This document shows, in pieces, positions 7,517 to 38,217 of a stretch of DNA of 46,509 nucleotides. Where the stretch lies: NCBI GenBank assembly GCA_013265495.1, contig MU058066.1, positions 1-46,509 of the forward strand, read 5' to 3'. Origin of the DNA: Vicugna vicugna (Eukaryota). Under the pieces are notes generated by a model that saw only the letters and a list, made by a program, of their open reading frames with translations, did not search any database and was not told the origin of the DNA. Positions within the stretch are counted from its first letter, which is position 1, and every line of letters begins with the position of its first letter. The position numbers and the translations under genes are program-made.

Positions 7517-7637
7517 ATGAGAGCATCTTATGCCCCTCGCAAGGAGCCTCCATCCTGCCCCAAGAGTCCCCCTTTTCCTTGGCGCTTCGTGGGGATTCTT
7601 TTGCTAGCCCTAGTGCTACCAATACACATGATCTCTG
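7517..7637 (+). CDS. CD46: CD46-like exon 1, signal peptide MRASYAPRKEPPSCPKSPPFPWRFVGILLLALVLPIHMIS
   Basis: AAAATGA start, long n-region plus hydrophobic core resembling bovine/porcine CD46 leaders, phase-1 donor G|GTAGGA at 7638. Confidence 0.92.
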
Positions 7638-10600
7638 GTAGGAGCCGGGAGAATGACCCACGTAGTAAACGAGCGTGTAGGGGAGGACGGAGGGTGGAGG
7701 GACCATCGCTTGGCGGCTCGGGGCCGAGGTGCCAGGCTGGCGTCCTTAAGAGTTAAGGTGGAAGGCATGGCCAGAGTGTCCCTGAGTCTTCCTGTTGGTA
7801 CCCACGGGGGAGGGGACCACATTGTGATCCAGGAGAAGATTTGCTTGGAGGTGGACGCTGAGTGTTGTGGGCTGGTGATCACCGCAGGAGTTTACCCAGG
7901 GCCAAGCTGGGTCCCTAGCAGAAGCTTGGAGGGTGTTTTCAGGACTGAGCCAGCTCAGGACAGGAACGTGGACCTGGTGATGGTGGGGACTGCTTGCTCC
8001 TGAGTACCCAGTGCTGCAGATGTTGCCAGGCTGGTGCTGTGCCTATGCGGAGGGTTTGCCTGTGGCCCTGGGTGGGGTGACACCTTATGTGTAGGGTGTT
8101 TGTGCCCTAGTCAGCTGAGACTGGGGAGCCTGGGCCGAGTGTACCCCAGTATGTGCTTTGTGGAAGTTGTCAGCCCAGTCGTGCCCAGGGTGGGACAAGG
8201 AAATGAACTATTTGCAGCATGGGGCTTAACAAAACAACAAAAAAAAAAAAAAAAGACAGCCAAACCTAGTGAAAAATGAGATCCTGAAAATGAACTATAA
8301 ATGATGTCCATGTATTTTTCCCATGTAGCTGAGAGACTAAAGCGGAGGTTCATTCACTAAGTTTGTTTTTCCTTTTTCGTGTTTCATAGAATTGAGTAAA
8401 TACTTTAAATATATGCTAAAAAAGACATGCTTAATGTAGAAAACATTCACAAGGAACAAGGAACACCCATTTTAAAAACTTTGGTATATTTCCTCCTGTC
8501 TTTATATGTAGATGTCTTTCCAGGCCCAAGTTATTTTTAGGATCCTATTACATATACAGTTTGTATTCTGCATTTTTTCCTTAGCAGCATTCAGCCCCCA
8601 AATATTTGCTTTCTATATGCCAGGTCCTGAGCTGGTCATGAGGATGCACTGGTGAGCAATAACACACCATTCCTATTTTCATGAGCCTTCGTCCACTATT
8701 TGTCTGTGCACACACACCGAATACATGCAGGGGCTGTGTTTTGCTCTCTGTGAGATCCCCGGTGCCAGGCACACATTAGGAAATCAAATATTTGCTAAAA
8801 TGTATTGGGTGTGGCAGACAGGAGGCAAAACATAATACTAATGAATATGTTATAACCCAAGAGAGGCCTGGAGGAAGGGAGCAGGATTCTCTGACAGCAT
8901 ATAACAAATGCCTGGTGCAAGGGGAGACTTTTCTGCTCATCAGACAGCCCAAACTCTGCCACTTTGGTGCTTCTACACTTGCTGTTCCCGTGGCCTTGGA
9001 ACATTCTCCTCTGCCTCTTGGGTTATTGACTCCTTCTTATTCTTACTTGGTTGTGATGCCCCCTCCTCAGAGGGACCTTCTCTGAGCCACTATTTCCAGT
9101 AGAAATACACACTCTAGCTCAAATCCTCCCTAACTGGTAGTCACCCTCCCAAACTATGTTTTCTGTTCCCTCCTCACTAGACTGCAGGGATCTTAGCTGT
9201 CTTGTCACACTGGTGGTTCCACATGACCATTTTCTTTTGCCGCATTATCAACACTCTTGTATCACTATCAAATACTAGAAAATTAAAGGTAACATTTGGC
9301 TGGGGCTTACAGCCCAGGAGAAACTTCTCCTTCCAGGAGGAAGGTTCTCTAAAGACCCATGCTTAGGATGGCCTTTCTGTGGTGCCTACAAATCTAAGGC
9401 CAGGGCAGCTGAGGTTCAGAAAGGATCAATCTTCCCCTGATTGTAGGCTCCTCAGGGCTCACAATTGTCCAGTCTTGCTTGTTACTGAGTATTTGAAAAC
9501 TTCATTTCTAGGTAGGAGTGGTGCGGGTGATGGAACAGTGGTAGTAAGAAGAAATCACAAGGAATATTTGAAAGAATAATAATGTTTAGAGCAAAAAGCT
9601 TAAAGGTAGAAGTTGAAGGAGATGATGAAAACTATTAAAATGGAGGAAAATGGATGAAGTAAAATGAATAGGATGCATCATGGAAGGTAACAGAACTAGA
9701 AATGAAAAGGAGGAAAACAAGTTTAAGTTTGAGGCTGAAAGGTGAATCAGGAGAGATAGGAGACTTAGATAAAGTACCATCGAGAACCCACTATACCATG
9801 TAGGGAAAGCATTGGATAAAACAAACATTTCGCTGAAGCAGCTCACAATGAGGTTTTGTAAGCAGACAGTGTTGTACCCGGGAGCCCTGCCACCTCAGAG
9901 GTAGTTGCCAAATGGTAGGAGATCACAAAAGGGACCCTTTGTGGAATTTCAGGGTGAGTCTCATTGCTCCATAATGGGTCTGCGTTTGGGGACAAAACCC
10001 GCAGTCTCCGTTTATGTGTGATCTCTTCTGCTTATTTTTGGTGTTTTGATTCTTCCTAATGAAAGAAGCCAAGATCAATAAGTGCTTCCACTGTAGTTTC
10101 TTGGTTTCCTTACTGTACGTATTACAGTACAAGGAGAACAGTGCGTATTGGTCAATTGCTAGGTTACCATAATTAATACTGGCAGACAGGAAACAAAACA
10201 AATTAGGTAGTCAAATCTTCCTCCAGTGCATAAAGCTTTAAGATGATTAATTTCAATATTAGATTCATTATATTCTGTTCTTTACCATTGTTTTCTGTTT
10301 GACAGCAGTGGTACCTGAAAACCAAAGTCTTGTGAATAGCTATGATGCAGAACATACTGGGCTAGGTATCGTGGCCACATGGATGAGCGGAGCCCACTAT
10401 ATTATGTATTAAACACAAAAACACGTGATAGTGAGCTGAGAGAGCCATGCAGAGGAGAGTCCAAGAGAAGGGGCTGGTCACTGCCTCCCCACAGGAAGCA
10501 GAGGGTACTTCCTAGAGGAGATGTTGAGTGGATTATGTCAAGGAAGATGAGAGCTGAGCAGGGGTTGCTCCTGAGCAGGAGGAAGGGTGCTCAGAGCAGA

Positions 10601-10959
10601 GGGAGCAGTGTGAGCAAAGGCTGAGAGATGTGGCAGGGCTCATGGACTGCCTAGCTACCCAGTGTGGCAACAGTAGGCAAAGAAGGCCAGAGGAAGGCCA
10701 AGGAGTAGATCACAGAGTGAATAGTTATGGGAAAACAGGATAGTTAGGAAAGAACAAAGACTATCATAAAATTCAGACTATGATGTCATTCCTTGTTCTT
10801 TTGGGGCAATTTGAGATCTTTCATTTGATTTAGCATGATGCAAATCTAACCTAAGTTTCCTTTAACTTCCCCGGGCTCAATAGAAGCCCGTTTCTTGAGG
10901 AGTAAATTGCAGACAGACTTTGCTGGCATAACCATACAAGGGTTCCAGATGACAGCCAG

Positions 10960-12810: not shown

Positions 12811-13264
12811 GAGAGGGGGACTTGGGAGGCAGCTCGCTTCAGTGGTAATGACGTCATGAGAGTATATATTCTCACCTGGGGACTTTGCAGAACGAAATCA
12901 GCAGCATTCCTTGAACAACCTACGAGGGACATCACATTATCCAATCAGGCAGAGAAGGGAGAGCAGCCAGAGGACAGGATGAAAACCAGGTGGTGGTTTG
13001 CTACCTGGAAACCAAGGAGAGAGAGCTTTTAAAGCAGAAGAGGAGGACTTGGGAGGCAGCTCGCTTCAGTGGTAATGACGTCATGAGAGTATATATTCTC
13101 ACCTGGGGACTTTGCAGAACGAAATCAGCAGCATTCCTTGAACAACCTACGAGGGACATCACATTATCCAATCAGGCAGAGAAGGGAGAGCAGCCAGAGG
13201 ACAGGATGAAAACCAGGTGGTGGTTTGCTACCTGGAAACCAAGGAGAGAGAGCTTTTAAAGCAG
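12811..13264. repeat. 227-bp direct tandem duplication (12811-13037 / 13038-13264) in intron 1
   Basis: GGACTTGGGAGGCAGCTCGC at 12818 and 13045. Identical translated segments in ORFs 12808..13032 and 12990..13259. Confidence 0.98.
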
Positions 13265-15620
13265 GGAGGGGAGTGGAGAAAGAATGACCATTAGCTCCCC
13301 ATGTTATAAACAGGGCACCTAAAATTACTGAGGGATAGCATGTCAGAGTGAGTTTACCAAGAACAAGCTTACTTAATTACTTTGAAAGTAAGTTAAGTGA
13401 TTATAAATGAGAGGGAACTGAGAAACAAAATTTATAGGTTCAATATTAAAGCCTGTGCTTTGAAGAAGCAAAGAAAGTTTTAAAATAGGTTGTGTAGACA
13501 GTGAGAGAAGGGGCAGGATAGTCAGGTTTCACTGAGTTTCCAGTCTTGGTCAGAGACCATGATTCTTGAAGTTGCCGCCTGGGCAGGGGTGTGGGTTTGT
13601 GCTTGTGTCATAGGTTTACTTTTAATTTTTGCAAGCAGGCAGAGAGTGCTTGCATAGTTTTTGAAAGTATATAGAGAATAAACAATTCTCTTGGTTCACA
13701 GCAGAGCACTATTTCACAAGCCTGAAACTCACCTGGAACATTGGGGAATTTTCTGAATGCAGCCTATCCCATGTAATGGCATCTAGAGTTAAAGAAGAGC
13801 ATTGCAGCCTAATAATAATTGTATTGTAAACTATCCAGAAAAACCTCAGTCAAGATGTTCTTTTTCTGGAGCTGAGAATCTTTAATTTGAAAATCCTCAT
13901 AAGAAGAAAATTCAATGTTCTGAGCAGAAGATGAATTTGATTATAAAAATGTGTGATATGAGAGTCAATCATTACAGTGTATGAAGTGTGCAGTCTACTG
14001 ATTGCCCAAGCAGATTCTAGGCTGCACATGGATGAAAGTATGTCTCTCATGATGCATTTTAGTGAAGAGAAATACTTCAAGCTAGTCGAAGGGACTAAAC
14101 TCTCCAACTGACATTTCTTTTTCCATATAGACAGAGCACTACATGTGAGAGTCATATTAGGAATTCTCTCTCCTGTGACTTCAAGATACTCACTGAAATC
14201 AAATGCATAAACAAAGAACACTTGTATAATTTAATTATAAGCATGCTGTTAGCTTGAGCTCTTTCTGGGTTATTCCGGGAAATGCTAGAATGACGTAATA
14301 CATTTGTTTCTAGTATGGAATTAGATAGCATTTCTATCCCATGTTTTTTACCCATATTAACATGAGAATGTCTGGCTCGGGGTATTCAGTAAATTTACTG
14401 CTATTAATAAAATTCAGCTCTATACTAATCTTGTTTTTAAACAATGCTTTTAATAACTACAGCTTTTTGGGTTTTGCTTTTATTTTGGGAATTTTATTGA
14501 GGAACGTTCATGTATCAAGATCAGCATAGTGGGAATGTTGAAAGCTAAATGTTGAAACAATTTCAGGCCATGATGTAAATGAAATGTTGGGTAGCATGTC
14601 AAGAGAGGAGTTTAGAATTGAGAATATGGTGTGAAAAGTGGGTAACATTTCACTTGTTTAGAGTTCTCTCTTGAGCAGTCTCTCAATCTGAAGTAAGACC
14701 AGGATCCAGGGATCAAGAAAAAAAAGATTCCTCAGGGCTCAGAGTAGGTCTATCTCCCTTCTTCTTGGGTCCTTAGCCTTAAAGGAGGGGCCTCTGCTTT
14801 CCTTTAACCCTTTAAGACTTGATGTGCCTCCATCACATTATTTTACATAAGTTTTCTAACAGATTTGTTAGGTTGTCAAGCCCACAGATAATTGAAAGGA
14901 AGAGGAATTGCTGAAGTAGGAATGACACTCTTCTAGGGAGGAACTTCTCCTCCCCCCAAAAAATACCCCAGAATAAAACATTCTAAAAGCATAGCAATAT
15001 AGTAGCTTTCCTCTCAGGATCTATTAGGTAAACAGCCCAACTGCTACTTCAGGGAAATGCATGATCTAATGATCAGTGAAGGAAAATTGAATTATATTTA
15101 CAGCAATGCCAAGAAAGCAATTTTTAAATGTAAGTCTATTCAAAGTAGTAAGTTTTTATATTTAAATGGCATCTATTCATCCATAAAACTCTTTAATTCA
15201 TGAATATGAAGTATATGAAAGTCATATATTGAAATACTTAGTCCACACCTATTTTGATCAATGAAACCCACAATGCTTAGTTAATAATCAACTCTTACCA
15301 TAGCATTTCTTGAGAACCCACTGCATACAGAGATTTCAAGATAGTAATAGTGACAGGTGATCATATGCTTGTGTTTCAAACGATGGAAGGATAATCTGAG
15401 CAGAGTGCTATGTACTTAGGAGACTTCTCAGAGGAGAGGGGAGGTTTCAAATGAATTTAGAAAAAAGTGGGGAAGGATTCATATATATATTCGTTATTCA
15501 TATATATATATAAAATAACAAATACATTGGTGTTTGTCTCTTTCCATTTACTGTTGAGTGTAAATTTAGCTTACTCTTCAACAAATCAGAAAGTAATAAA
15601 ATGTTATTTAAAGTAAGCAA

Positions 15621-15951
15621 GGATTGGGCTGTTTGTTTTTTTATGTGTTGTATGAGATGTTTATATATTCTGAAAATTAAGCTCTTGTCAGTCTCACCTT
15701 TTGCAAATATTTTCTCTGATTCCATAGGTTTTTGTTTTACTTATGCTTTCCTTTGCTGTGCAAAAGCTTATAAGCTTAATTAGGTCCCATTTGTTTACAT
15801 TTGCTTTTTTTTCTATTGCCTGGGTAGACTGCCCTAGGAGAACTTTACTGAGATTTATGTCAGATAATGTTTTTCCTATGTTTTGTTCGAAGAGGTTTAT
15901 AGTGTCTTGTCTTATATGTAAGTCTTTAAGCCATTTTGAGTTTATTTTTGT
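15621..15951 (-). mobile_element. Internal L1 ORF2 fragment lacking 3'UTR and polyA
   Basis: Highly similar to ~25330-25665 of the younger L1 in this window (TTTGCTGTGCAAAAGCTTATAAG...AGTCTTTAAGCCATTTTGAGTTTATTTTTG). Confidence 0.9.
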
Positions 15952-16230
15952 AATTTGTTGTTTTCTGCTTTCTCTAGAGATTTTTACACATTTTAAGGTC
16001 TGTTTTCTGCTACAACAATGATGATTTTCTTATGCAAAACTAGATTTTAGATATCAATACATTTATTTTTCAAGCTGTGAGAAAGCTCCAGGGAATCTTT
16101 TCTTGATGATTGGTTGCTGTTTTAAGTTTGGCCTCATAATAGTTAAAGTAATATTTCATCATTAGAATTTTGATCTTGATTTAAATGTTTGAAACTGGTA
16201 TTAAAAATGAATTTGAAATTTTTCTTTTAG

Positions 16231-16330
16231 AATCATCATGTTTAAGGCCAGAAATAAAAAATGGTGATGTATTCCCCCGGGGTGTATCATTTTCGTTGGG
16301 AACAGAGATTCACATTTATTGTAAAAAGGG
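16231..16330 (+). CDS. CD46: CD46-like exon, first half of CCP2: (E)SSCLRPEIKNGDVFPRGVSFSLGTEIHIYCKKG
   Basis: TTTCTTTTAG acceptor, GG|GTAAGT phase-2 donor, 100 nt, C..P.I.NG...F..G.....C..G sushi motif. Confidence 0.93.
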
Positions 16331-16689
16331 GTAAGTAAATTGCTCCTTAGATGAAATAAGTTAAATGTTATGATTTCTTTGCTTCTCAGCTAAAAGCTGA
16401 TTTCATTTTACTTTCTAGGAGACAAGATATTCTTGTAGCCAGACAGCTCTGGGGCTTTTTAAGGAGACTGAAAAGATGTGTAATTAATAGAAATTTAAAT
16501 TGAAGAAAAGTGAAATTGTATACTTACTATATGTAGTATTAAGCCTATTGAAAGCATCAAAACTGTAGTAATCATGGTGACTTTATCCTTAACCACAAAG
16601 TGCATCCTATTTAAAATGGCCAACTCTCAAAGCTGAAGGAGGACTCACCAAATGTTGCATTGTAGAAGTTCTCTATTTCCTTACTTATC

Positions 16690-20012: not shown

Positions 20013-20342
20013 TCTCAATAAGTACTGAGCAGAGTGGTGTGAGCAAAAGCATAGAAGTGAATGTGTGATGCATTTGCCGGAGATAGCAAAGGGGGCCACA
20101 TTGACAGGCATGACAGAGTAATTTAAACATTTTACTCTGGGCCAATGTGTGTTCACATGCAGAAACTCTTTATTTGATTAAAATGGAAGATTTGGTTAGC
20201 ACTTCCATATATTGTGTCTTTTAAGGAACATCTCCCTCAAACTACTGTGTTGCAGAAACACAGCCATATAAAAATGTTCTTCTTTATTATGGGCGTTGTG
20301 TTAACTGGTAAAGAAACAGTAACCTCTTCTTTTTTCATTTAG

Positions 20343-20428
20343 TTATTACTTAAAAGGAATAGAAGCTCTAACTTGTATTGCTGTTGGAGATAATATACAG
20401 TGGAATTACAAGTACCCAATATGTGAAA
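20343..20428 (+). CDS. CD46: CD46-like exon, second half of CCP2: (G)YYLKGIEALTCIAVGDNIQWNYKYPICE
   Basis: Polypyrimidine-TAG acceptor, A|GTAAGT donor, 86 nt as in CD46 exon 4, GYYL.G....C.......W....P.CE motif. Confidence 0.95.
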
Positions 20429-21499: not shown

Positions 21500-21697
21500 A
21501 GATTTCATGTGGACTGCCTTCAAACATAAAAAATGGAAAATATACCAATAGCTCCAAGAATGTATTTCACTATAAAGAATAAGTGACTTATAGTTGTAAT
21601 CTGTTAAATAGACCAGATCAATATTCACTTGTTGGAGAGAGCGAGCTTACTTGTTCTGCACATGGCAATTGGAGCAGTGAAGCTTCTAAGTGTAAAT
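21500..21697 (+). pseudogene. CD46: CD46-like CCP3 exon with in-frame stop: KISCGLPSNIKNGKYTNSSKNVFHYKE*VTYSCNLLNRPDQYSLVGESELTCSAHGNWSSEASKCK
   Basis: 198 nt, phase 1-1, all four Cys and the Trp present. TAA at 21580-21582. The donor is a weak T|GTAATA. Confidence 0.95.
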
Positions 21698-25200: not shown

Positions 25201-26830
25201 AGTGATATCTCAATCTTTTTGATTTGCATTTCTTTGATAATTAGCCATATTGAGCATTTGTTCATGTGCCTGTTGGCCATTTGAATGTCTTCACTGGAGA
25301 ATTTTTGTTTAGGTCTTCTGTCCATTTTTGATTGGGCTGTTTGATTTTTTGTTATTAAATTGTATGAGCTTTTTATATATTCTGGAAATTAAGCCTTTGC
25401 CAATCACATAATTTGCAAATATTTTGTCCCATTCTGTAGGTTGTCATTTTGTTTTGCTTATGCTTTCTTTTACTGTGCAAAAGCTTATAAGTTAATTTGG
25501 TCCCATTTGTTTATTTTTGCTTTTATTTTTATTGCCTGGGTAGGCTACGCTAGGAGAACATTGCTAAGATTATGTCAGAGGATGTTTTGCCTATGTTTTC
25601 TTCTAAGAGGTTTATAGTGTCTTGTCTTATATGTAAGTCTTTAAGCCATTTTGAGTTTATTTTTGTTTATGGTGTGAGGGAGTGTTCTAACTTCGTTGAT
25701 TTACATGCAGCTGTCCAGTTTTCCCAGCACTACTCGCTGAAGAGATTGTCCTTATTCCATTGTTTATCCTTGCCTCCTTTGTCAAAGATTAATTGACTGT
25801 GAGTCTGTGGGTTTATCTTGGGTCTCCAGTAGAGCTTTTTGTATGAATTGGCAAACTGATTCTGAAATTTATATGGAAAGACAAAAGAACTACAATAGCT
25901 AAAACAATTTTGAAAAAACTGCAGGATACACTCTACTTGATGTCAAGACATAGTATAAAGCATACTCTACAACATATAAGCAAGACAGTTTGGTATCAGT
26001 GAAAGGATAGCCATGTAGAGCAGTGGAATAGAATAGTGAGTCCAGGATTAGACCCTTGAAAATATGTCCAGTTGGTTTTCATCACAGATATACAAACAAC
26101 TCAGTGGGAAAACAGTTTTTTCAACAAATGATACAGGCACAACTGGATACCCATATGCTAAAAAAAGAACCTCAGCCTGTGTTAGTTCCATATGCAAACA
26201 CTTATTCAAAATGGAGCACAGGCATACATGTAGAGCCTACAACTACAACACTTTAATGAGAAAACATAGAAAATATTTGAACCAGCCAAATGTTCCTTTA
26301 ATACAATCCATAAAGCATGATGCTTTAAAGAAAAAAATTAATAAATTGGACATTCTAAACTCAAAACTTCAGTACTTCAAAAGACATTTGGGGGGGAAAA
26401 GCAAGAGACTAGGAGAAAATGTTGCAAAGTACTTATCTAATAGCTGGCTTATGTTTATGATCTACAAAGAACTTTCAAAACACAATAGCAAGAAAATAAG
26501 CCAATTTTCTTTAAATAAGCAAAAATTTTAGTTGACATATTTTACCAAACATGATAAGAAAATGGCAAAAAAGTACATGAAAATTTGGTCTATATTATTA
26601 GTAATTACAGGAATGTAATTTAAAACCACAATGAGATCCCACTAACCACCTATTAGAATGGCTGAAATTTAAAACAAAAATGAAGAATAATACTAAGTAG
26701 TGGTGAATCTATGGAGCAGTTGAAACTCTCATACATCGCTGGTAAGAATATAAAGGTGTACAACCACTTTGGAACAGTTTGTCAATTTCACAAAAAGTTG
26801 TATATATACTTTCTATATAACCTGGCAGTC
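22215..26830 (+). mobile_element. Old degenerate L1 ORF2 spanning the CCP3-CCP4 intron, with nested younger insertions
   Basis: Colinear L1 ORF2 landmarks (GAAATTGACAAATTCCTTGAAAGA, ATTACCCTGATACC, CTGTTCAATATTGTACTGGAGGTC, AAAACCACAATGAGAT). A separate L1 3'-end piece is nested at ~22830-23140. Confidence 0.85.
24384..25827 (-). mobile_element. Younger 5'-truncated L1 nested antisense in the old L1, with a 13-bp TSD
   Basis: AGTAGAGCTTTTT at 24371-24383 and 25828-25840. Minus ORF 24896..25213 [35 protein letters not shown] is the ORF2 C-terminal Cys-rich region. Confidence 0.93.
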
Positions 26831-27087: not shown

Positions 27088-27185
27088 GAAGGAAGGAAGA
27101 GAGGAAGGAAGGAAGGAAGGAAGGAAGGAAGGAAGGAAGGAAGGATAAAAGAAAGGAGAGAGGGAAGGAGGGAAGGAAGGAAGGA
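27088..27185. repeat. (GGAA)n-rich purine tract within an L1 ORF1-like relic (~26860-27520)
   Basis: Visible GGAA repeats. Confidence 0.9.
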
Positions 27186-28226
27186 AACAAGAGAGGGAGA
27201 AAGAAAAGGAGTCAGCGAGAGAGTAAAAGGTATTATATTGAGGACATACCTACCTAACCACACCTTACCCAGGCTGACTGCTCTTAAGGACCTGTGAAGA
27301 ATAGAAGACAGTAATTTCTGCTAATGTGCTGAAAGAAAAATAAAGCACTTCAGCTAGAATTCTCTGTCAAGGAGAAACCTTTCAAAACTGAAGAGGAAAT
27401 AAAAACAGTTTTAGATAAGCAAAAGCTGAAAAAATTCGTCATTAGCTGACCTGAACCCAAGGATTGATAAGGAAGTCCATGTACTTGATGGAAATTCAGA
27501 TCCACAGAAAAGGAGGAAGAACACGCTTCTGGTTTAAAAGGCTTTATGATATCTGGCCCTCATCTATTGCTCACATTTATTCTGATAAGACGTTCTCTGG
27601 AACTCACTGCCCAGCCCAGTGTTTTTTGGTTTTGGTTTCTTTCTTTTCCAACTTCTGCAAAAGTAATCCTCAAGTCAATCTAGAGGGCACGACCTGTGTT
27701 TTACTTCTGAAGAAGTAGAGTAGAGTGGGGAATACCAGAGTACACCAGCGTGAAGCCTAAGCATTTTGCATGGCTGGATTTTTCAACTTTTAAGTTTGAG
27801 TATTTAAAGTATTACCTTCTCCAAAAAGTCTTTGCTACCTTTCTAAAAGAGCAGGGAACTCTAACTAGTGTCACCATGATCTTTAAAAAAACAGTCCTAG
27901 AGCTAGAGTATCAAAAGTTGCATTTGAACTTACCTCCAATTTGTATCTGATAGTCAGATCTTTCTTAAAACTTGTCAGTAATGGAAAAAAAATTAGGAAA
28001 GACAATAAACTATAGTGGCAGTCTGCTCTAGGTGAAAAAACATTAGATTTCTGTAAATCTTTTTGCCTAGAATTCAAATGCATAAATAAAGTCTTTTTTT
28101 TTTTTTCAATTAGCATCTTGCCTTTCATTCCTTGCCTCTTTCTTCCCACGGGAAATTACTGCTTGGCACTAGTTTTTCTATGTGAAATTACCTTTCTTTT
28201 AATTCTGAAATTTCTCCACTTTTCAG

Positions 28227-28409
28227 TGGTCAAATGTAAACCTCCAGTACTTGAACATGGAAAAGCAATATCAGAAATTAGAGAAGTTTTTACCTACAAA
28301 GACGTGGTGATACTTGAATGCCTCCAGGGTTTTTACCTTAATGGCAGCCATGCAGTCTTCTGTGGTGGTGAAAATACTTGGGAACCTGAGATGCCGAAGT
28401 GTATTAAAG
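28227..28409 (+). CDS. CD46: CD46-like CCP4 exon: VKCKPPVLEHGKAISEIREVFTYKDVVILECLQGFYLNGSHAVFCGGENTWEPEMPKCIK
   Basis: TTTTCAG acceptor, G|GTACAA donor, 183 nt, intact sushi domain (within ORF 28118..28459). Confidence 0.97.
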
Positions 28410-28816
28410 GTACAACTGTTTGTCTTTTTTTTTTCCTGTCTTTTAACTTTCTCTTTTAGTTCTTATTTTGTTCACATTGATAAGAATAAGTGAAAAGAAG
28501 CAACCTTAGTACTTAACTCGGACATGTATCCACTTCCATGGCAGATACATGACAAAATTTACATACAATTCTGCTGCTGTGGTTTCGCATGCTGTTAGAG
28601 AGTCAGCACATTGCTTGTTAGCACATTACACAGGTGTATTAATACCTCTTGTTCAGTATTTTAATGTATAAAAAGAGATAGGAATCACTTTTCAGAATAA
28701 ATTGAAGCATGGGCATTTTTACCTTGAAATAGGTCAAAAATGAGAGGCATAATTCATATAAATGAGAGGAAAGCAATAATCCCAAGTGGTTGATCCTACA
28801 TTATTTTGTTTTTCAG

Positions 28817-28861
28817 TGCTGATTCTTCTCAATACAACACTTCTAGTTTCATGCCATTCAG
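28817..28861 (+). pseudogene. Degenerate STP-A-like exon with a dead donor (VLILLNTTLLVSCHS)
   Basis: Good acceptor TTTTTCAG, 45-nt length, TGCTG...CATTCAG ends like CD46 STP-A, but followed by ATATAG rather than GT. Confidence 0.7.
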
Positions 28862-29019
28862 ATATAGTAATTTCCTGTTTATAGTTTACAAAAAAATCTT
28901 TTAAATTCATGTGATTTACAGTCATCATTTTTAGTAACAAAAAGATAAAGAATATACTTACAGTCATTTTAGTTGTGATACTTAGTAATTCTCAAAGCAT
29001 TTGCCATAGTCCGCAGATA

Positions 29020-29190
29020 TCAACTGTGTGTAAACTTGGGCAAGTTATGTAAACCTTAAATGTGTTTACTTACATGTAGGATGATCTAATACCTTTCTCA
29101 CTGGGTAATAGCAAAGTTGGAATGGAGGGCATTTGAAACACTTAGCAAAGTACCTAGCATCTAGAAAGCTCTTAAAGGTAGCTCCCATGA
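29020..29190 (+). mobile_element. MIR SINE relic
   Basis: CTGTGTGTAAACTTGGGCAAGTTA...AACACTTAGCAAAGTACCTAGCATCTAG. Confidence 0.6.
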
Positions 29191-30632
29191 CTTAACAGCA
29201 TCCCCTTTACAGAGTATCTTGCAGGTCCAGGACTATGGTTCATTTTCCAGACTGCAATCAGTTGGCTTCATTTTACAAACTGGGAAATTTCTGTTGTCAC
29301 CTGATTAAAACCAGTATTTCTACCACACACACCATTCTGCACCGCATAGAGTTATTATTTTTCTCTCTCCTGGGCATTCTTATTTGGCAACAGAGGGTAA
29401 ATCTCATAGCCACTGAATGGCAGGAAAAGTCTTTATTTATTGAAATGAACTGGGTGATTTCTGGACGGGACTATTGATCAGCTGCTCTGCTTAAGTCTTG
29501 AGAGACTATTTGAATGTGATGGAAGGAATTATCTTCCTGATTTTAGGGATTGCACCTCTGGCTTCTCTTTACAGCAGCAGCAGAAGCACGAGACAAGAGC
29601 AAGAATGGGTAGAGCACGAGCCTGGGCAGAGGGTACTCAGGGTGCTGGGGGGGCTCTGCTCACTCAAGTAACATCACTGCTGTGAGTGTACTTCCCTGTT
29701 TAATGAAGGTGTGGAACTCACAGCTCCATGACTGGCTTTTGATGTGTTTGTCTTTTTCCTGTTGTCCTAATATTTTCAAGGATTGAGGGGAATTATTCAT
29801 ATTAACATGGTAATTAGAGCTCCTTTTTAGAACAGCTGTAAAGCTGGTACCCCGTATCGCCCTAGAGTACCGGGGTGAGGTGAGGGCTGTGAAGATTTGG
29901 GGGGAAAGAGATGATTTTTATTGGACCATATATAAAGAAGTTATACTCATTGACCCATCCCTGTTAGTCACAGGGTCCTAGTGAGAATATGCACTACAAT
30001 ATACTATGTTTGTTGATATGCTGTTTTGAAAAAGTGGACCATAAACACTTCTTAAGGACTTAGAAAACATTGATACAATTTAGTGTTTGAAGAAGAGAGA
30101 AATTGTTTGTGAGAAAAAAACTTATGAAAAGAAGAAAATACAGGGATTTAAAAAAAATCAAAATCAACTCTCCTTATGAGATTGCTAATCATTTTTTTAT
30201 CATCAGTTTGAGACAGACTATACCAAAAGCATCAGTAGCACCATAAATGATGTTAGGTCAGGTTTAAATGTGCTAATACGAAAAAATGTCTAAGAAATAC
30301 TATGCCAAAAGACAAACACAGAAAAAGATACAAATTATGGAATGTAATAGTGCCTGACCCTTTTAAAGAATACTGAGTTTTATGATTTATAGTTGACTAC
30401 AGGGATTTCCATTATAAAATACAAAGTTGTGTTGTACATTTTATGCATACATCCTCACCTACATGTGCAAATATACACTTAGACTAAATTCCCAGGAGTA
30501 GACTTGCAAAGTTCTGAGTGTATTGTATTTTTTATTTGAGAAATAATTAACCTTTTTCTAAAATTAAAAAAAAATAGATACATAATTTTGTGTTGATAAG
30601 ACTGATGCATTGAGCCAAATTTAATTTTGCAG

Positions 30633-30680
30633 GTTACAAGCCTACCTATCCAAAGAAGCCTCCAGTTTCAAACTATCCAG
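30633..30680 (+). CDS. CD46: CD46-like STP-C exon: GYKPTYPKKPPVSNYP
   Basis: TTTTGCAG acceptor, G|GTTCAG donor, 48 nt. KPPVSNYP matches CD46 STP-C. Confidence 0.95.
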
Positions 30681-31229
30681 GTTCAGTAACTCTTTATCCT
30701 TCGTATATTGTTAAGAACTTTATAAGGTGATGAGTACAAAATCATGTCTTGCTTAATTTGCATTTCTTTAATTATCAGTGAGATTGAACTTTTTCTTATC
30801 TACATTTATTTATTATATTCTTTCTTACTTTTTCTATTAGGTTTCTTAAATATTTTTCTTGTTGATTTGAACTTATAAATTAAAGCCCTTTTAAGATGAA
30901 GTGAACTTTTTTCCTACGTTTATATTTTAGCCTTATTTTCACTAGTCGGTTTTTTTTTATGATTTTTATACTGTACTATTAGATGTAGGTTGCTTTTTAT
31001 AAATTTTTGTTATATGAGTGGTACACAAATATAATTTTGTAAATTTTCAAACATTGCAGAAGTATGCAGAGTGAAATTAGATCCCCTGATCTTTCTCTAG
31101 CCTATTACCTGAGTTAATCACTGTTAATAGTTTAGAGTGTCTCTATGTATTTCTGTAGATCAAAATCCTTATATGTGTAATTATACATTTAGTTTGGTGG
31201 TTTTTTCCTCTCTTTTTCTTATACAGAAA

Positions 31230-31510
31230 TGTTTTTAAGTGCCAGCACCATTTTCATTCCAACCAGTAATACACAAAGTTTCCAATTTCTCAACTTCTTT
31301 GCTAACATATATTGATTTCTGGGTTTTGATAATAATGATTATAATTTATGTTAGTTAATTGACTTGAAGCAATATCTCATTGTGGCTTTTATTTGCATTT
31401 CCCTAAGTTAGTGATGTTGAGCATCGTTTCATGTGAAGATATACAAATTGCCAAGAAGCCATTTCTCTTTGGAGAAATGTTTATTCAATCCCTTGCCTGT
31501 TTGTGAAATG

Positions 31511-31544
<34 letters not shown>

Positions 31545-32590
31545 ATTGAGTTTTAGAAGTTTGTTACATATTTTGGATATTAATCCCTTATAAGGTAGTT
31601 GTAAAACTTCACTGTTTTGCATGTGGATATCCAGTTTTCCAAAAATTGTTTGTTGAAAAGACTGCCCTTCCCACTGAGTGTTCTTTGTACCCTTGTGAGC
31701 GATCATTTGTCCATATAAGTGAGGGTTTATTTATGGATTCTAATTTAGAGCATTGGTCCGTGTGTATGTCTTTCTGCTAGTAGCATTCTGCTTGATTATT
31801 GTAGCTTTTTAGTAAGTTTTGAAATCAGGAAATGTAAGTCCTCTCAACTCTGCTCTTCTTTTTCAAGATTTTCTTGGCTATTGCTAGCCCCTTGAGATTC
31901 CATATGAAGTAAATTGGATTTTTCTATGTAAAATGTATTTTCAAGATGGTGATAAGAAGTATAATCAATCTGTAAATTACTTTGTGTCATATTAACATCT
32001 TAACAATATTAAATCTTCCAATCTATGAACACAGGATGTCTTTCCATTTATGTCTTCTTCCCTTTTTTTCAATGTTTTTATAATTTTTGTGGACAAGTTT
32101 TTCAACCTTCTTGGTTCAATGTATTTCTGAGAATTTTTTGATGCTATGAAATGAAATTGTTTGCTTAATTCCCCGTTTGGATTGTTCATTATTAGTGTAT
32201 AGAAAGATAACTTATTTTTGTGTGTTGATTTTGTATCCGTTAACTTTGCTGAATTTATATATTAGTTCTAATAGTTGTGTGGGAGTGTTTCTGTGCATGT
32301 GTGTGTGATCTTTTTAGAGATTTTTATGTAAAAGATCATGTCATCTATAAACAGACATTATTTTATTACTTCTTTCCCATTTGGATATTTTTTATTTTTA
32401 TTTCTTAGCAAATTATTCTGACCCAAACTTCCAATATTATGTTGAATAGAAGTGGAGTGGCAGAATTATGCAGCCTGTCTTATTCCTGACATTAAGTGAA
32501 AAAAATTTTAATATTTCAACATTGAGTTTGACATTAGCCATGAGTTTTTCTATCCATGGCCTGTGTGTTGAGGAGTCTTTCTATTCCAGA
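31230..32590 (-). mobile_element. Degenerate L1 ORF2 fragments including (GTT)n at ~31513-31546
   Basis: GCATGTGGATATCCAGTTTTCC, TTTGAAATCAGGAA, CTTCCAATCTATGAACACAGGATG. Confidence 0.8.
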
Positions 32591-32908
32591 GTAATCTCTA
32601 AATCATTTTTAAGTACTCCTCTTTTAATTTTAAGTAGAATCACATTGAATTCCAGGCTAATTTTGAATATACACTGATGATTAGTTTGTTTGCCGTACCA
32701 CAGAATTAGTGACAAGGAACATCAGTGGACAGGAGGAAGAATGGCATTGAATATAAATTTATAATGTTTGACGATGCAGCTTTTAATGAGAGCCATTAAT
32801 ATAATGTATAAGGAATATTAAATTATAATTATAAATTATAATTGTGAATGTGTAGATCTTCAAGACTTATTTAGTCTTTTTTTTTAACCTAGTTCCATTT
32901 TTTTCTAG

Positions 32909-32959
32909 GATATCCCAATCCCAAAGAATTACTGTCACTTGAAGACTTTGAGGAATTAG
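32909..32959 (+). CDS. CD46: CD46-like juxtamembrane (U) exon: GYPNPKELLSLEDFEEL
   Basis: TTTTCTAG acceptor, G|GTATTA donor, 51 nt, GYP.P.E start typical of CD46. Confidence 0.92.
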   Translation, partial: DIPIPKNYCHLKTLRN

Positions 32960-33470: not shown

Positions 33471-33506
33471 ATGTAGGAAGCTTTGCTGTGTATATCCTAA
33501 CAGTAA
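33471..33506 (+). CDS. CD46: CD46-like TM1 exon: DVGSFAVYILTV
   Basis: TTTTTCTCAG acceptor, 36 nt, A|GTAAGT donor at 33507. A second GTAAGT starts at 33503. Confidence 0.9.
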
Positions 33507-34001
33507 GTAAGTATCCCAAATTTTTATATCATTTAAATCATAATGTAGTATAAAGAAATGCATTATTTTCTCAATGATTTTTCATTTGCTATAGTTTTAA
33601 TAGCTTGAAATTAAGTAAAAACAGTCTAGAAAAACCCGACCTTTTATGATACAGCACCACCGTGCTGGTGACGGTACATGCTTTTTTATTCTGTATATCC
33701 ACTTGGTAATAAGCAGTAAAAAATAAATTTTTTTTCAAGATGAGTAGTCATGCGAGTCTGTTTCTTGAATATGCTTTTGATTATTTCCTAAATTAAACAA
33801 GGAGTTGGACCTACTCTGAACTGTTTTAGTGACTTCCAGGGAACTGGATTTAGATACTGAAGGGTCAAGATGGAATATCAATGTTTAAATAAAATAACAT
33901 TTTCTGACCATGGAAATGTAGCTAACATTTATTTCTGCTGCTAGGTTTGGAATCTTGGTAATTAGTTAGTGACATGTCACTTGTTTCCTGTTTTCTTTCA
34001 G

Positions 34002-34239
34002 TTGTTGCCATTTTACTAGTTTTGGTCTGCATGTACAGAAGTCTTCGAGGAAGGAAGCAGCAGGAGAAGGAGAAGAAAGAAGAGGAGGAAAAAGAGAAGA
34101 AAGAGAAGGAAGAGAAGGAGAAGAAAGAGAAGGAGGAGAAGGAAAAGAAAGAGAAGGAGGAGAAGGAAAAGAAAGAGAAGGAGGAGAAGGAGAAGAAAGA
34201 GAAGGAGGAGAAGGAGAAGAAAGAGAAAGAGCAGAAACG
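34002..34239 (+). CDS. CD46: CD46-like TM2/anchor exon expanded by an E/K repeat: IVAILLVLVCMYRSLRGRKQQ-EKEKKEEE-(EKEKKEKE)6-QKR
   Basis: TTTCTTTCAG acceptor, CG|GTAAAC phase-2 donor, 238 nt, open frame (ORF 33974..34243). Confidence 0.92.
34064..34231 (+). repeat. Coding 24-nt x7 all-purine minisatellite (GAGAAGGAGAAGAAAGAGAAGGAG consensus)
   Basis: Seven 8-codon units with mostly synonymous GAA/GAG and AAA/AAG variation. Confidence 0.95.
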
Positions 34240-34999
34240 GTAAACTACAGTGCATTTTCTCTTAGTCTAACCTTTTTACTCTTGACATACTTTTGCGCAG
34301 TTATTATTTGTAGTCCATGTTGCATGCTGTGTGGGTTTTTTTTTATGTTCCTGCATGAGGGTGCTGTCTGAATTGCATTTCATTACTGAAAATATTTTTA
34401 GCTACTTTTCATGTCATTGAACAGGATAAATTTATGCAGAGTTTCTTCAACTATTACAACTGCAAGAAACATTTCAGTGGCATTTGATGTTTAAGTTCTG
34501 CAGTAAACCATGGACTATTATGAGGCCTTCACTACTCTAAGTGTACCCTACTTCCTAGATTGGGCTAGTAGCCAAGATTAAAGTTTAAGTGGTTCATGGT
34601 AGAAACTTTAACATTTGTATTCACTTGCATTTTATGATGAAAATCTCCATTTGTCTGCACAGCTTAGGTAGTAAGTAAGAAGCTATGTAGCCACAATTCG
34701 GTTTCATTTCATTTAGAGTTGTTATCTATATAAGTTAAGCTGTGGAATTAAAAGCAGCATTATTTGATTTCCCTTTTATGTTCTCTTAATTTACTAAGCG
34801 GCAGTAAAACTGATGGGGCTAAAGTTACTGAAAGGGTAATATTTACAAGACATCTCTTTAATTATATCCTTCTCTTTATCTGTAAAAATGAAAAAAAGTC
34901 AGGGGGCTAAGAATAGAAAAAAAGAAGAAAAATTCATATCTACTAAGGAAAACCGAGATGTTAAACATAAAACTTAAATTTTAATGAAATAATTTACAA

Positions 35000-35664
35000 T
35001 TTAATGAAAGACTTAAATCAAAGGCAATAAACATAATGAACATAGACACAAAAGTCCCCCAAAAATGTCATTAATTAAGGAAATTGAGAAAGATACAAAT
35101 AAATAGAAAGATATTTCAGGTTCATGGATTGGAAGAATTCACATTGTTAAAATGCCCATACTACGCAAAGTAATCTACAGATTCAACGCAACCCCCATCA
35201 AAATTCCAATGGCATTTTTCACAGAAACAGAACAAGCAATTTTAAAAAATCTGTATAGAAGCACAAAAGACCCTAAATAGCCAAAGCACCCTTAAACTGT
35301 AAACATCATGCTCGCTGGTGTCAAACTATATTATAATGCTCAAGTAATCAGAACCATATGATATTGACATAAAAGCACACACATAGATCAATGGAACAGA
35401 ATACGGAGCCCAGAAATAAACCTACATGTATAAAGTCAGTTAATTTATGACAAAGGAGGCAAGAATATATGAAGAAAGAACAGTCTCTTCAACAAATGGT
35501 GTTTGGAACTGGACAGCTACATGCAAAAGAATGAAAATGGACCACCATCTTACACTATATACAAAATTGACTCAAAATCTGTTGAAGACTTGAGAGTAAG
35601 ACCTGAAATCATAAAACTCCTAGAAGAAAACATAAGCAGAAACTCATTGATATCCATCTTGGCA

Positions 35665-35721
<57 letters not shown>

Positions 35722-36710
35722 TTTGGATTTGGCACCAAAAGCAAAGGCAAGAAAATCAAAAAGAAACAAGTAGCACTACGTCAAACTAAAAAAGCTTCCT
35801 CATAGCGAAGTAAACCATCAACAAAATAAAAGGGCAATCTACTGAATGGAAGAAAATAATGGCAAACTATGTATTTGATAAAAGGTGAATATTCCAAAAT
35901 ATGTGACCACTCATACAACTCAATGGTAGAATATCAAACAATTTAATTAACAATGGGCAGAGGATTTAAATGGACATTTTCCGGAGAAGACATACAGATA
36001 TCTAACAGGTACATGAAAAGATGTTCAACATTACTAATCATCAGGGAAGTGTGATTCAAAACCTCAATATGATATCACCCCGCAGTATTAAGTTTCCTCA
36101 AAATACCAAAACTAGAACAATCATGCAATCCAGCAGTTCCACTTCTGGGTATTTATCCAAAGGAAATGAAAACACTAACTTGAAAAGATATCTTCACTCC
36201 CATTTTCATTGCATCATTATTTATAATAGCCTAGGTATGGAGACAACGCAAGTGTCCATAGTGTGGAGAGAAGGGGACCCTCCCACACAGCTGGTGGGAA
36301 TGTAGTTTGGTGCAGCCATTATGGAAGAGTATGGAAATTCCCCCAAAAACTAAAAATAGACTTACCATATGATCTTACAATCCCACTTCTGGGAATATAT
36401 ATCTGGAGGGAACTCTAATTTGAAATGATACATGCAACCCAATATTCATAGTAGCAGTATATACAATAGTCTAGACATGGAAGCAACCTAAATGTCCATC
36501 GACAGAGGATTGGATAAAGAAGTTGTGTATATTTATACAATGGAATACTACTCAACCATAAAAAAGAATAAGAACTTTGAATATAAACTCTTAGCAACTA
36601 TCAAACATGAAATACAGTATTAATAACTATACTCACTCTTCTGTACATTACATCCTCATGACTCATTTTATAATTTGAAGTTTGTAGCTTTTGAATCCTT
36701 TCACTCCACA
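35000..36710 (+). mobile_element. Composite L1 ORF2 3' fragments with (ATT)n at ~35665-35720 and a short antisense L1 3' piece at ~36575-36710
   Basis: TCATGGATTGGAAGAATT, ATCTACAGATTCAACGCAACCCCCATCAAAATTCCAATGGCATTTTTCACAGAA, TGGAATACTACTCAACCATAAAAAAGAAT. Confidence 0.85.
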
Positions 36711-38144
36711 TGGGCAATTTCTTTTTAAAAGCAAAGTGATGTCTTTGATCACAGTGGCAAAGGGGAAGACAAAATATACCAACTACAATGACAGTCTGGG
36801 CCTATCCAGCCCTGTGTGCCTGCGAGGATAAAGCCAACTAGGAAAGTAATTTTCAGACAGACATGAACTTCAAAGTATATGTAAACATTTGAAGATAACT
36901 TAATGCTGAAAGTAATAACATAACTGTAATTAGTCATTCACACACACATTTTAATCATCTTGAAATAGCATTTTTGTTATATCAAATGAATGTTTCATTC
37001 AGTTTATAGTAATGCTTATTTATCTTTGTCAAATACTGGATTTCAATTTAAAATTCTACCTAAAAAAAAGGATTTTACTGCAACAGAAGAAAAAATGCAT
37101 TGACTTCAAAAAACAGAAGAATATAGTGGTTTTGGAGGATGAAGGAGGAGTCGCCCACCACCGTAGTCCTTAGGAAATGGCTCTATTACAAGTACGGTGC
37201 TGTGACAGCGGTGGTTCAGTGATGCCTTGCCCACCAGGAGAAATAGTAGAATCTCCAAAATTAACACAGTTAGCTGTTATGTGGGGTTGGTATCTCGAAG
37301 TGTTTGCTGGGGTGGGCACACTCTGAGTAACTGACTGGTCCACATTTGGTTGTGGTCTGTCTACCATGTTTCCTGAGGAGGGACTGGGACTGCGTTTTCC
37401 AGCTCCAGACTCTGTAGCCCTGAGTGGCTGCTGTGACGTCAAATGTGGCTTATCCTATGTAAGATGAGCAAAGTACACACCAGATTCAAAGACTTAGTGC
37501 ACTGCAATAAGTGAAATATATTAAAACTAATCCTGCTTCTTTTCCTTCTTTTAATGTGGTTTCTAGAAAATTCAAAATTACCTATGTGACATACTATATT
37601 TCTTTGAATAACATTGACTTGAATAATAGGTATAAGAAAGATGTCTGCTGCTACAACAAAAGTGTGATGTGGATTTTACTTATTTAGGAGTCTCTGTTAC
37701 CACAACATATCATTTCCTTGACAGTGAGGGGTAAATAAGGCATTATTAAACTTGAACACTCCTGGAATTATTGTCTATTTAAAGGTTTTATCTCAGAGCC
37801 AGATTTAAAACTCCATTATTAGGGAAAATGCATGTTTCTCTTTAATCTTTCCCACTGACCCCAAACTAAAATAACAGAATATTTACTAAGTATGTGTGAC
37901 TGCTCTCTTTTTCATTTTGGGGGACATCAAAAATATAATACAGGGATAGAAAAAGGGTTTCTGGAGTGAGACTCGTTGAACATTTGAAATTACTTGAAAA
38001 GAATCATTTCTTTTCTAGTGATGTGACTCTTACTACTATAAATACAGTTTTAATTGTCCATTTTCTAAGTAAGCTTCTGGAATTTAATTTCTGTGCTTCT
38101 GTTTACCTCTGATGCTATCTTTTTTGTTTTGTCTTGTCTTACAG

Positions 38145-38217
38145 GAAAAGAGAAGTTACTGCTAGACCCACTGCTCACCAGAAAAGGCCAACCAGCCCAT
38201 CAGTACGGAAGCACTAA
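38145..38217 (+). CDS. CD46: CD46-like last coding exon (CYT2-type tail): (R)KREVTARPTAHQKRPTSPSVRKH*
   Basis: Strong acceptor (TTTTGTCTTGTCTTACAG), phase 2 matching the TM2 donor, 23 further codons to TAA, the length of CD46 CYT2. Confidence 0.88.

Follow-up and report, generated by a model that had tools for sequence, protein, structure and literature searches.

Does the 311-aa reading frame at this locus encode a new receptor with two CCP modules derived from CD46, as an earlier note on this DNA proposed, or does it have another origin? The window (the whole stretch of DNA that was analysed, 46,509 nt) is best read as one ~45-kb unit of a tandem CD46 paralogue cluster in a South American camelid, a placement that follows from exons 100% identical to Vicugna pacos RefSeq proteins. 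We judge that the frame most likely comes from a hybrid copy, recent and crippled, or from a mix-up in assembly, and does not represent a new receptor. Our preferred reading, to which we give about an even chance, is that the window is a real, recent unequal-crossover hybrid unit in the cluster, probably a pseudogene.

The reading frame and its exons

CD46 orthologues are the closest relatives. In the search 22 of 24 candidates passed at E<=1e-8, and all the recognisably named ones are membrane cofactor protein or MCP-like, from camel, whale, deer, pig, horse and bat; the remainder are 'unnamed' or 'uncharacterized' cervid proteins. Human MCP is a top PDB match for single modules. Two alpaca genes serve as references. 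The first is canonical CD46 ('membrane cofactor protein-like isoform X1', XP_072804560.1, P0029), which has four Pfam Sushi stretches. The second is an MCP-like gene, called gene 2 here (XP_072804563 to XP_072804570; P0013, P0014, P0023, P0024, P0026-P0028).

The nine exons joined in the earlier note (121+100+86+183+48+51+36+238+73 nt) do give 936 nt encoding 311 aa and ending in TAA, with a canonical AG acceptor and GT donor wherever applicable in all nine. The Cys and Trp residues of the CCP modules are also kept, as the translations of the frame and of the CCP3 pseudo-exon make visible. Exon lengths alone are weak evidence, since 409 stop-free combinations fit the nine lengths. Validation of the choice comes from RefSeq camelid CD46 models, to which every one of the nine is 100% identical in aa sequence.

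All of these exons are on the forward strand. Exon 1 (7517-7637) carries the start codon and signal peptide, and shares 40/40 aa with each of the two alpaca genes (P0029 and P0013). CCP2 is of gene-2 type and is split between 16231-16330 (100% aa identity to P0013) and 20343-20428 (100% aa identity to P0013 residues 138-166). The CCP4 exon, of canonical CD46 type, follows at 28227-28409, with 100% aa identity to P0029 and P0001. The remaining exons are all identical to P0029. They are the juxtamembrane exons at 30633-30680 (GYKPTYPKKPPVSNYP, the earlier note's 'STP-C') and 32909-32959 ('U'), transmembrane exon 1 at 33471-33506, transmembrane exon 2 with the E/K-repeat cytoplasmic segment at 34002-34239, where the identity includes the repeat length, and the last coding exon at 38145-38217 (KREVTARPTAHQKRPTSPSVRKH plus the stop). 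The first juxtamembrane exon is the homologue of the exon amplified into an STP-like array in gene 2. Its identity to P0029 along stretches of 40 and 208 aa gives the frame the layout of a type I membrane protein, with signal peptide, transmembrane segment and cytoplasmic tail. The open frame contains CCP2 and CCP4 only, not CCP1 to CCP4 in one frame.

The full intron-exon structure over 30.7 kb rules out a processed pseudogene. Read-through into a microsatellite was rejected as the source of the E/K repeat, since predicted CD46 tails of pig and whale have E/K too.

A gene-2 front, a canonical back and two lesions

The unit is a mosaic. The promoter, signal-peptide exon, CCP2 and dead CCP3 are of gene-2 type; from CCP4 onward, through the juxtamembrane, transmembrane, E/K and tail exons, it is of canonical CD46 type. 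At the front, CCP2 is identical to that of P0013 over 61/61 aa. Exon 1 is identical over 121/121 nt to exon 1 of the canonical copy on contig C5496, within surroundings that are 91% identical over 401 nt and 87% identical over 2.2 kb. The first CCP2 exon matches the canonical copy's in just 65/100 nt, while 300 nt of flanks are 91% identical. At the back, 208/208 aa from CCP4 to the stop are identical to canonical alpaca CD46, whereas the CCP4 exon has 83% aa identity to gene 2's CCP4. Canonical CD46 differs from the window in its own CCP1 and CCP2 and an intact CCP3. Gene 2 has the same exon 1 and CCP2 and makes no use of a CCP3 in the isoforms examined, but differs in its own CCP1, a variable STP-like repeat run, and its own CCP4 and tail, encoded on contig C7314.

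In per-exon dN/dS estimates the first CCP2 exon gives 1.04 (dS 0.48) and the CCP3 pseudo-exon, against an older paralogue, D, gives 0.91. The CCP4 exon and the last coding exon, against gene 2's copies, give 0.24 and 0.20.

CCP1 is indeed absent, as the earlier note had it. Relative to the sister copy on C5496, ~2.0 kb including the CCP1 exon has been deleted at 15952/15954, and the junction (15952-15954) has an ATTTTGT microhomology. The part without a counterpart in the window is C5496rc 54614-56621, consisting of L1 pieces and the CCP1 exon (56419-56604). Contig C331, 99% identical to the window left of the junction, continues into L1, and the deletion is not present there.

CCP3 (21500-21697, forward strand) carries the stop named in the earlier note, a single in-frame TAA at 21580-21582. 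The exon otherwise looks sound, with good splice sites and 69% aa identity to canonical camel CCP3. Like CCP4, it shows the four Cys and one Trp of a Sushi (CCP) module and a Pfam Sushi match (E 2.7e-11; CCP4, E 4.2e-12), aligning to human MCP residues 127-190 where CCP4 aligns to residues 192-251. It is used in 0/8 of the gene-2 RefSeq isoforms examined. Skipping of CCP3, on which the 311-aa product depends, thus fits all eight, but those isoforms splice CCP2 to the STP-like exon array on another contig and not to the CCP4 of the window. A further claimed lesion, loss of an STP-A donor, was not reproduced; two crude scans of 28410-30632 gave no convincing S/T/P-rich exon.

Sister copies and the join between the halves

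Each part of the window has sister copies diverged by 1-4%. C331 is a second gene-2-type 5' copy, 99% identical to the window; C4964 is 98% identical to its part; and C9442 is a second canonical-type 3' copy. C5496 carries canonical exon 1, CCP1 and CCP2a and then ends. C7314 starts in the intron after CCP3 and carries gene 2's 3' half, with its own copy of that intron and a dead CCP4. Both parental copies are still present beside the putative hybrid (C5496, C7314, C331, C9442). Canonical CCP2b, canonical CCP3 and gene 2's CCP1 were found nowhere in this assembly. The earlier note's own alternative, a killed paralogue with intact siblings, comes close to these findings, with sisters at this divergence, one of which keeps the region deleted with CCP1.

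The window begins and ends in an inter-unit spacer module. Copy 1 (1-2046) is 96% identical to window 45275-46509 and to C7314:7397360-7399403, and 89% to C7314:7480694-7482716. Its sole link with the remaining window sequence runs through an L1 interrupted by N gaps (2313-2456 and 2889-3102). Copy 2 (43958-46509) is 97% identical to C7314:7399241-7400457 and 96% to window 1-1484. The two differ by 31 transitions and 11 transversions over two aligned pieces, and they relate unequally to the third copy (96% vs 91%). In total, four spacer copies can be told apart, one at each end of the window and two on C7314, where three would be expected from only two units. An intron-1 block is present in a fourth copy, on C227 at 94% identity, so the cluster has a more complex make-up than three units. 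Recent duplication can be mimicked here by gene conversion, since distant units have high-identity patches, such as a 97% spacer match between units 185 kb apart.

The change from one parental type to the other can be followed along the sequence. Over 553 aligned nt, a block at 23597-24149 is near-identical to the beginning of C7314rc, where gene 2's 3' half has its upstream end. Of the 25 differences, 20 are crowded into the initial 200 nt next to the contig end, which leaves 5 for the other ~350 nt. Similarity to gene 2 then drops at 24150-24370, where the window has ~200 nt of old L1 that C7314rc lacks and, after them, ~34-40 nt containing 3-4 mismatches. The switch lies within a contig, 570 nt before the next N gap, and beyond it the identity to gene 2's contig is 77-86%. 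Next comes a 5'-truncated L1 insertion on the reverse strand (24371-25840) with a 13-nt target-site duplication. The N gap at 24723-24797 lies inside it, so that the gene-2-type front and the canonical-type back are separated by a gap in a repeat. The duplication, AGTAGAGCTTTTT, is found at just two window positions, 24371 and 25828, on either side of the L1, and the empty site is present in C7314rc at ~571-585. Three of four reference L1 copies place the two L1 parts in collinear order at the correct spacing (expected 85-104 nt vs observed 98-109); the fourth is without a match to the left part.

These observations suggest the following course. Unequal crossover, or non-allelic homologous recombination, between the diverged parental genes somewhere at 21.7-24.15 kb would have created a third, hybrid unit between the two parents, and the hybrid copy would later have lost CCP1 by the 2-kb microhomology deletion. 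If the unit is transcribed from its CD46-type promoter, inclusion of CCP3 would give a premature stop, and skipping it a 311-aa SP-CCP2-CCP4-TM protein without the C3b/C4b-binding CCP3-4 pair. We therefore regard the unit as young and decaying, a side product of a cluster undergoing rearrangement. Some observations go against this, among them the fourth intron-1 copy and the patches attributable to gene conversion. The halves are joined solely via an N gap in a repeat; should the L1 be older than the duplication, it would also sit in the canonical copy, and the right half of the scaffold could then belong to canonical CD46. A single event predicts equal divergences, but those found are ~1% for C331, ~2% for C9442 and 3-4% for the spacers. 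C9442 and the window share 97% identity across 5.5 kb; 67 transitions, 27 transversions and multi-base indels separate them, and 3/3 of their coding differences are synonymous. This hints that both 3' copies are constrained, which would be expected of two alleles or two functional genes more than of a dead copy. C9442 also shows a putative +1 G frameshift.

Alternatives and known systems

A join made by the assembler or between haplotypes is a less probable explanation that still has to be taken seriously. Only the two annotated genes would then exist, with the 5' part of gene 2 wrongly joined to the 3' part of canonical CD46 via the L1 and a gene-converted, near-identical intron block. The left half would possibly be a CCP1-deleted allele, and the extra contigs divergent haplotypes. 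The window is the whole of an unplaced 46.5-kb scaffold in a 12,405-contig assembly, with four N gaps, one of them exactly between the halves and L1-flanked. The assembly is clearly defective in this cluster, as the missing exons attest; C5496 and C7314 both end inside it, and intron-1 blocks 96-97% identical between the parental genes could mislead an assembler. In a newer alpaca assembly, too, a contig of 126 kb with a gene-2 3' copy (P0025) stays unplaced. At the protein level 9/9 exons equal those of P0013 or P0029, and no third protein-coding gene of this kind occurs among the RefSeq proteins examined, which counts against a hybrid gene. Against a wrong join stand the L1 on the two sides of the gap, with its matching target-site duplication and collinear halves, and the similarity switch within a contig. 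The end spacers, besides their unequal relation to the third copy, differ by 3-4% with an excess of transitions, and C9442 differs by 2% plus indels of 4-17 nt, more than expected between alleles.

We consider it improbable that the unit is a working gene, whose mRNA would skip CCP3 and yield a 311-aa membrane protein with two CCPs and a new role (decoy, adhesion or altered virus receptor). In its favour are the intact frame with canonical splice sites, the unchanged exon 1, the omission of the homologous CCP3 exon from gene-2 isoforms, the synonymous differences from C9442, and the much faster evolution of this type of CCP2 than of its flanks (65% vs 91% identity). About a quarter of the sequence words sampled from 34000-42000 are present in two RNA-seq runs, which is weak evidence because this 3' part is shared with canonical CD46. 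The intactness of the frame is inherited from two working parents and a phase-1 exon design, and therefore needs no selection. In the databases searched, signal peptide plus CCP2 of this type turned up gene-2 isoforms only (2 of 117 candidates passed in one search, both gene-2 clusters; another gave zero candidates), and no protein linked this CCP2 to this CCP4. The unit has two or three lesions, and C9442's frameshift, if real, may belong to it. The strong CCP3 splice sites make inclusion of the exon, and a premature stop, plausible. A figure legend in a review (PMC5035964) places C3b/C4b binding on SCR3-4, so that CCP3 is one of two binding modules and, with it lost, factor I cofactor activity towards C3b/C4b by the window product is unlikely. 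The neofunctionalised receptor is unsupported, the frame being without an exon of its own.

Finally, the scaffold could be correct without any separate hybrid gene, with canonical CD46 splicing its own CCP3 over the 5' exons of this unit into this CCP4, and gene-2 transcripts starting at this exon 1 and reading through to the STP array; this would explain RefSeq models that use exactly these exons, one copy each, but it is very improbable given C7314's own post-CCP3 intron copy and dead CCP4, the second 5' half on C331, a unit without gene 2's CCP1, and the read-through needed past the canonical CD46 polyadenylation region.

Human CD46 has a CCP2 split into two exons and phase-1 module boundaries, and the window is alike; the human protein has four working CCPs and an STP region. 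A long E/K-repeat tail is found here in the camelid, pig and whale models, and is not known from human CD46. Module types and order in human CD46/MCP (PDB 3o8e, 5fo8) are as in the window. New World monkey CD46 is without SCR1 (PMC5035964), through loss by mRNA splicing, and modules 2-4 remain. The window unit also is without the first module, but what it has lost is the exon itself, at the DNA level, and its CCP3 is dead as well.

A precedent for the proposed origin is in the CFH/CFHR hybrids known from human patients, in which unequal crossover has fused tandem paralogues with CCP modules in the RCA cluster. The 5' part of one paralogue continues into the 3' part of the adjacent one; the junction falls in a homologous intron, and the module exons stay in frame. 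The CFH/CFHR hybrids keep working modules, whereas the putative window hybrid, joined across an N gap, has one dead and one deleted module.

Exons of the 311-aa frame and the two annotated genes that they match

An earlier note had proposed a possible new 2-CCP receptor derived from CD46, readable as an intact 311-aa frame if a stop-containing CCP3 exon is skipped. The frame itself is real. Nine exons (7517-7637, 16231-16330, 20343-20428, 28227-28409, 30633-30680, 32909-32959, 33471-33506, 34002-34239 and 38145-38217) join into 936 nt encoding 311 aa, with AG/GT at all boundaries. The exon lengths alone are weak evidence because 409 stop-free combinations fit them; the nine chosen are the ones that RefSeq models use. 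The lesions described in CCP3 and CCP1 also stand. The CCP3 exon (21500-21697), a Sushi module that aligns to human MCP residues 127-190, carries one TAA at 21580-21582 and retains its Cys and Trp. CCP1 is missing through a deletion at 15952/15954 of about 2.0 kb, comprising L1 pieces and the CCP1 exon, relative to the sister copy on contig C5496, and the junction shows ATTTTGT microhomology. The loss of an STP-A donor was not reproduced: two crude scans returned no STP-A exon, and the sole candidate, at 29552, is unconvincing.

The latest alpaca annotation has two adjacent genes. Gene 1 (XP_072804560-62; model P0029 and others) is canonical CD46, with SP, CCP1-4, two short juxtamembrane exons, TM, E/K repeat and tail. 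Gene 2, annotated as MCP-like (XP_072804563-70; models P0013, P0014, P0023, P0024 and P0026-28), has the same SP, its own CCP1 and CCP2, 6-12 STP-like repeats of 16-17 aa, its own CCP4 (83% identity), TM, E/K repeat and tail, and none of its eight isoforms uses CCP3. Exon 1 of the window (40/40 aa) and its CCP2 (61/61) are those of gene 2, and its sequence from CCP4 through the stop (208/208 aa) is that of gene 1. Judged by these identities, the 311-aa frame is without any exon of its own.

The mappable exons of the alpaca models are all 100% identical to this genome, and the camel models show a few differences; on this basis the genome is taken to be that of a South American camelid. The CCP4 exon matches membrane cofactor protein models of camelids, whale, deer, pig, horse and bat, is 100% identical to the Camelus bactrianus and Vicugna pacos models, and aligns to human MCP residues 192-251. 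The 238-nt exon carrying TM and E/K has the length that it has in P0029; a read-through of a purine microsatellite was considered for it and rejected, since the tail is present in alpaca, camel, pig and whale CD46 models. Exon 1 (7517-7637) is identical to that of the canonical copy at 121 of 121 nt, with surroundings just 87-91% identical, which is the reverse of the CCP2 pattern. An alternative cytoplasmic exon at 34910-34981 (RIEKKKKNSYLLRKTEMLNIKLKF), 96% identical here, forms the C-terminus of the Camelus models P0001 and P0030 and not of the alpaca models. For several Camelus CD46 models (P0001, P0002 and P0033), the N-terminus is translated from what is intron 1 here, at 7632-8000 and 13839-13898 (MARVSLSLPVGTHGG... 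and KNLSQDVLFLELRIFNLK); the true signal-peptide exon seems to be missing from these models.

Continuity and origin of the unit

The assembly comprises 2.03 Gb in 12,405 contigs, and the window is the entire contig C1349 (46,509 bases), with four N runs (2313-2456, 2889-3102, 24723-24797 and 45175-45274). C5496 holds the beginning of gene 1 (exon 1, CCP1 and CCP2a) and then ends, and the rest of gene 2 is on scaffold C7314, which ends within the cluster. Canonical CCP2b, canonical CCP3 and gene 2's CCP1 were not found anywhere in the assembly, which is therefore defective at the CD46 cluster. The window also contains a perfect 226-nt tandem duplication (12812-13037 and 13039-13264) within a stretch of strong GC skew, and a 300-nt repeat in the spacer (43315-44255) at a spacing of 641 nt and 98% identity.

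Since the N gap at 24723-24797 separates the two halves of the window, a false join was suspected at first. Three observations argue for physically continuous halves: the gap lies inside one L1, the switch in similarity falls within a contig, and there is a sister copy for every part. The 13-mer AGTAGAGCTTTTT occurs at just 24371 and 25828, on either side of the L1 insertion, and the empty L1 site is visible in gene 2's contig. Three of the four reference copies align collinearly with both L1 parts flanking the gap, in one orientation and at the expected spacing; the fourth has no match to the left part. Similarity to gene 2's contig is high until 24149, with 20 differences in the first 200 nt of the match, located at the contig end, and 5 in the last ~350 nt. 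It drops at 24150, 570 nt ahead of the gap, where a 200-nt indel starts, and past the L1 the identity is 77-86%.

The sister copies lie on other contigs of the same assembly. C331 is 99% identical to 15136-15952 and 98% identical to 20124-20283, and it runs on into the L1 without the CCP1 deletion. One intron-1 block is 98% identical on C4964 and 94% identical on C227. C9442:1-5713 is a 97% copy of 27095-32838, with 67 transitions, 27 transversions and indels of at most 17 nt. It is a second canonical-type 3' copy, and its CCP4 exon has a putative +1 G (GG to GGG). The opening 1.5 kb of the window is repeated at its end, at a spacing of 45,009-45,025 nt and 95-98% identity. A simple mis-scaffold in which the window's end overlaps its start is weakened by the 3-4% difference between the ends, with its excess of transitions, by the four distinct copies of the spacer module between units (window start, window end and two on C7314), and by the gap inside one L1 with matching target-site duplications.

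With about even confidence, we read the window as a hybrid CD46 unit of recent origin that is probably a pseudogene. Unequal crossover, with gene 2 contributing the 5' side and gene 1 the 3' side, would place a third unit between its parents, and it would leave all the duplicated parts a few percent diverged. The divergences are in fact unequal, at about 1%, 2% and 3-4%, and this counts against a hybrid, as do the activity of gene conversion and the fourth copy, C227. Gene conversion is evidently active, given blocks of 96-97% identity between the two genes in intron 1 and a spacer match of 97% at a distance of 185 kb. Should the L1 have arisen before the duplication, the scaffold's right half could be the 3' half of gene 1, and C9442 that of the hybrid. 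Were C9442 the hybrid's 3' half and its +1 G real, the 311-aa frame would be broken.

The main alternative is that the two annotated genes were fused into a chimera, by the assembly or from haplotypes; we judge it less likely. It would fit the result that no third protein-coding gene is among the RefSeq proteins reached, but the L1 with its matching duplications, the similarity switch inside a contig and the sister copies argue for continuity. With SP-CCP1-CCP2 of gene 2 as a database query, solely gene-2 clusters were recovered among proteins of 265-846 aa and nothing at 30-264 aa; the absence of a hybrid is weak evidence because such searches rely on shared words and existing annotation.

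The wider CD46 cluster

The cluster, with the STP-like array of gene 2 and a hyperdivergent CCP2 exon (35% inside 9%-diverged flanks), is more notable than the frame. Followed in the direction of gene 2, C7314 carries the intron after CCP3, a dead CCP4 with two stops, the array, and then the working CCP4, TM and tail. The array consists of about ten tandem units of 2.3-2.7 kb (G000:C7314, about 7,551,500-7,578,500, minus strand), each with one STP-like exon (GNKPPASANPAGPNYSG and variants) homologous to window exon 30633-30680; its homologue in the window is 28858-31231. The RefSeq isoforms X1-X8 differ in their number of STP-like exons and have the architecture SP-CCP1-CCP2-repeat stalk-CCP4. 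The CCP3 and first CCP4 of gene 2 are dead and replaced by the amplified array of STP-like exons.

The CCP2a exon (16231-16330) is identical to the canonical copy on C5496 at 65 of 100 nt, versus 91% in its 300 nt of intron flanks (16081-16480), with a dS of 0.48 and a dN/dS of 1.04. This contrast reflects either gene conversion that homogenised the introns and spared the exon, or diversifying selection on the exon. Two older CD46-like units also lie on G000:C7314 (7,483,000-7,526,000 and 7,400,000-7,443,000). Their CCP3 and CCP4 have 53-59% and 45-50% aa identity, their introns are 70-90% identical to those of the window, and a copy of the spacer module follows each. The cluster therefore contains at least five CD46-like units.

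Function and comparison with known systems

The suggestion of a new 2-CCP receptor finds no support, as the frame borrows all its exons and its openness requires no selection: two working genes supplied its modules, every one of them a phase-1 exon. A deletion has removed CCP1 from the unit and a stop has disabled CCP3, which evolves near neutrality in comparison with the older paralogue D (dN/dS 0.91). Because the splice sites of the CCP3 exon are good, its inclusion, leading to a premature stop, is plausible. A functional 2-CCP protein is improbable. The coding substitutions between the window and C9442, all three of them synonymous and at third codon positions, favor some constraint and are equally compatible with alleles or with two working 3' halves. 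A review assigns C3b/C4b binding to SCR3-4 (PMC5035964), so a CCP2-CCP4 product should not be a cofactor.

Three of the 24 sequencing runs listed are recorded as RNA, and two further are guessed to be RNA. In two RNA-seq runs, labelled as reproductive-system samples, a share of 0.25-0.27 of the sampled words was found for 34000-42000. These shares would fit expression from the 3' exons and UTR that the unit has in common with canonical CD46, and since this 3' part is common they are no evidence for a hybrid.

It is quite improbable that the window is a real, transcribed hybrid gene, whose mRNA without CCP3 would set the fast-evolving CCP2 of gene 2 directly on the canonical CCP4-TM-E/K tail with no CCP1. 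If true, the product would not regulate complement and could be a decoy or an altered pathogen-contact surface, in an arms race mirrored in the exon-specific divergence of CCP2. Cattle CD46 is described as a pestivirus receptor whose binding platform is carried by CCP1 (PMC9607657). The weakest reading, that the window holds interleaved genes, is very improbable.

A hybrid unit, if confirmed, would be evidence that unequal crossover is still under way at the CD46 cluster of camelids; a full-text literature search, judged largely from abstracts, found no paper on camelid CD46 duplication. The case also calls for caution. Two working neighbours in a tandem cluster can pass on an intact frame of phase-1 CCP exons, and an unplaced scaffold can make such a mosaic look like a gene.

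In the RCA cluster, CFH and the CFHR genes provide known examples of hybrids made by unequal crossover. By sequence and exon design the window unit belongs to the CD46 family, and it departs from the family in not having four CCP modules. New World monkeys provide a known case of CD46 lacking SCR1; there, as reviewed, SCR1 is lost by splicing and SCR2-4 are kept (PMC5035964).
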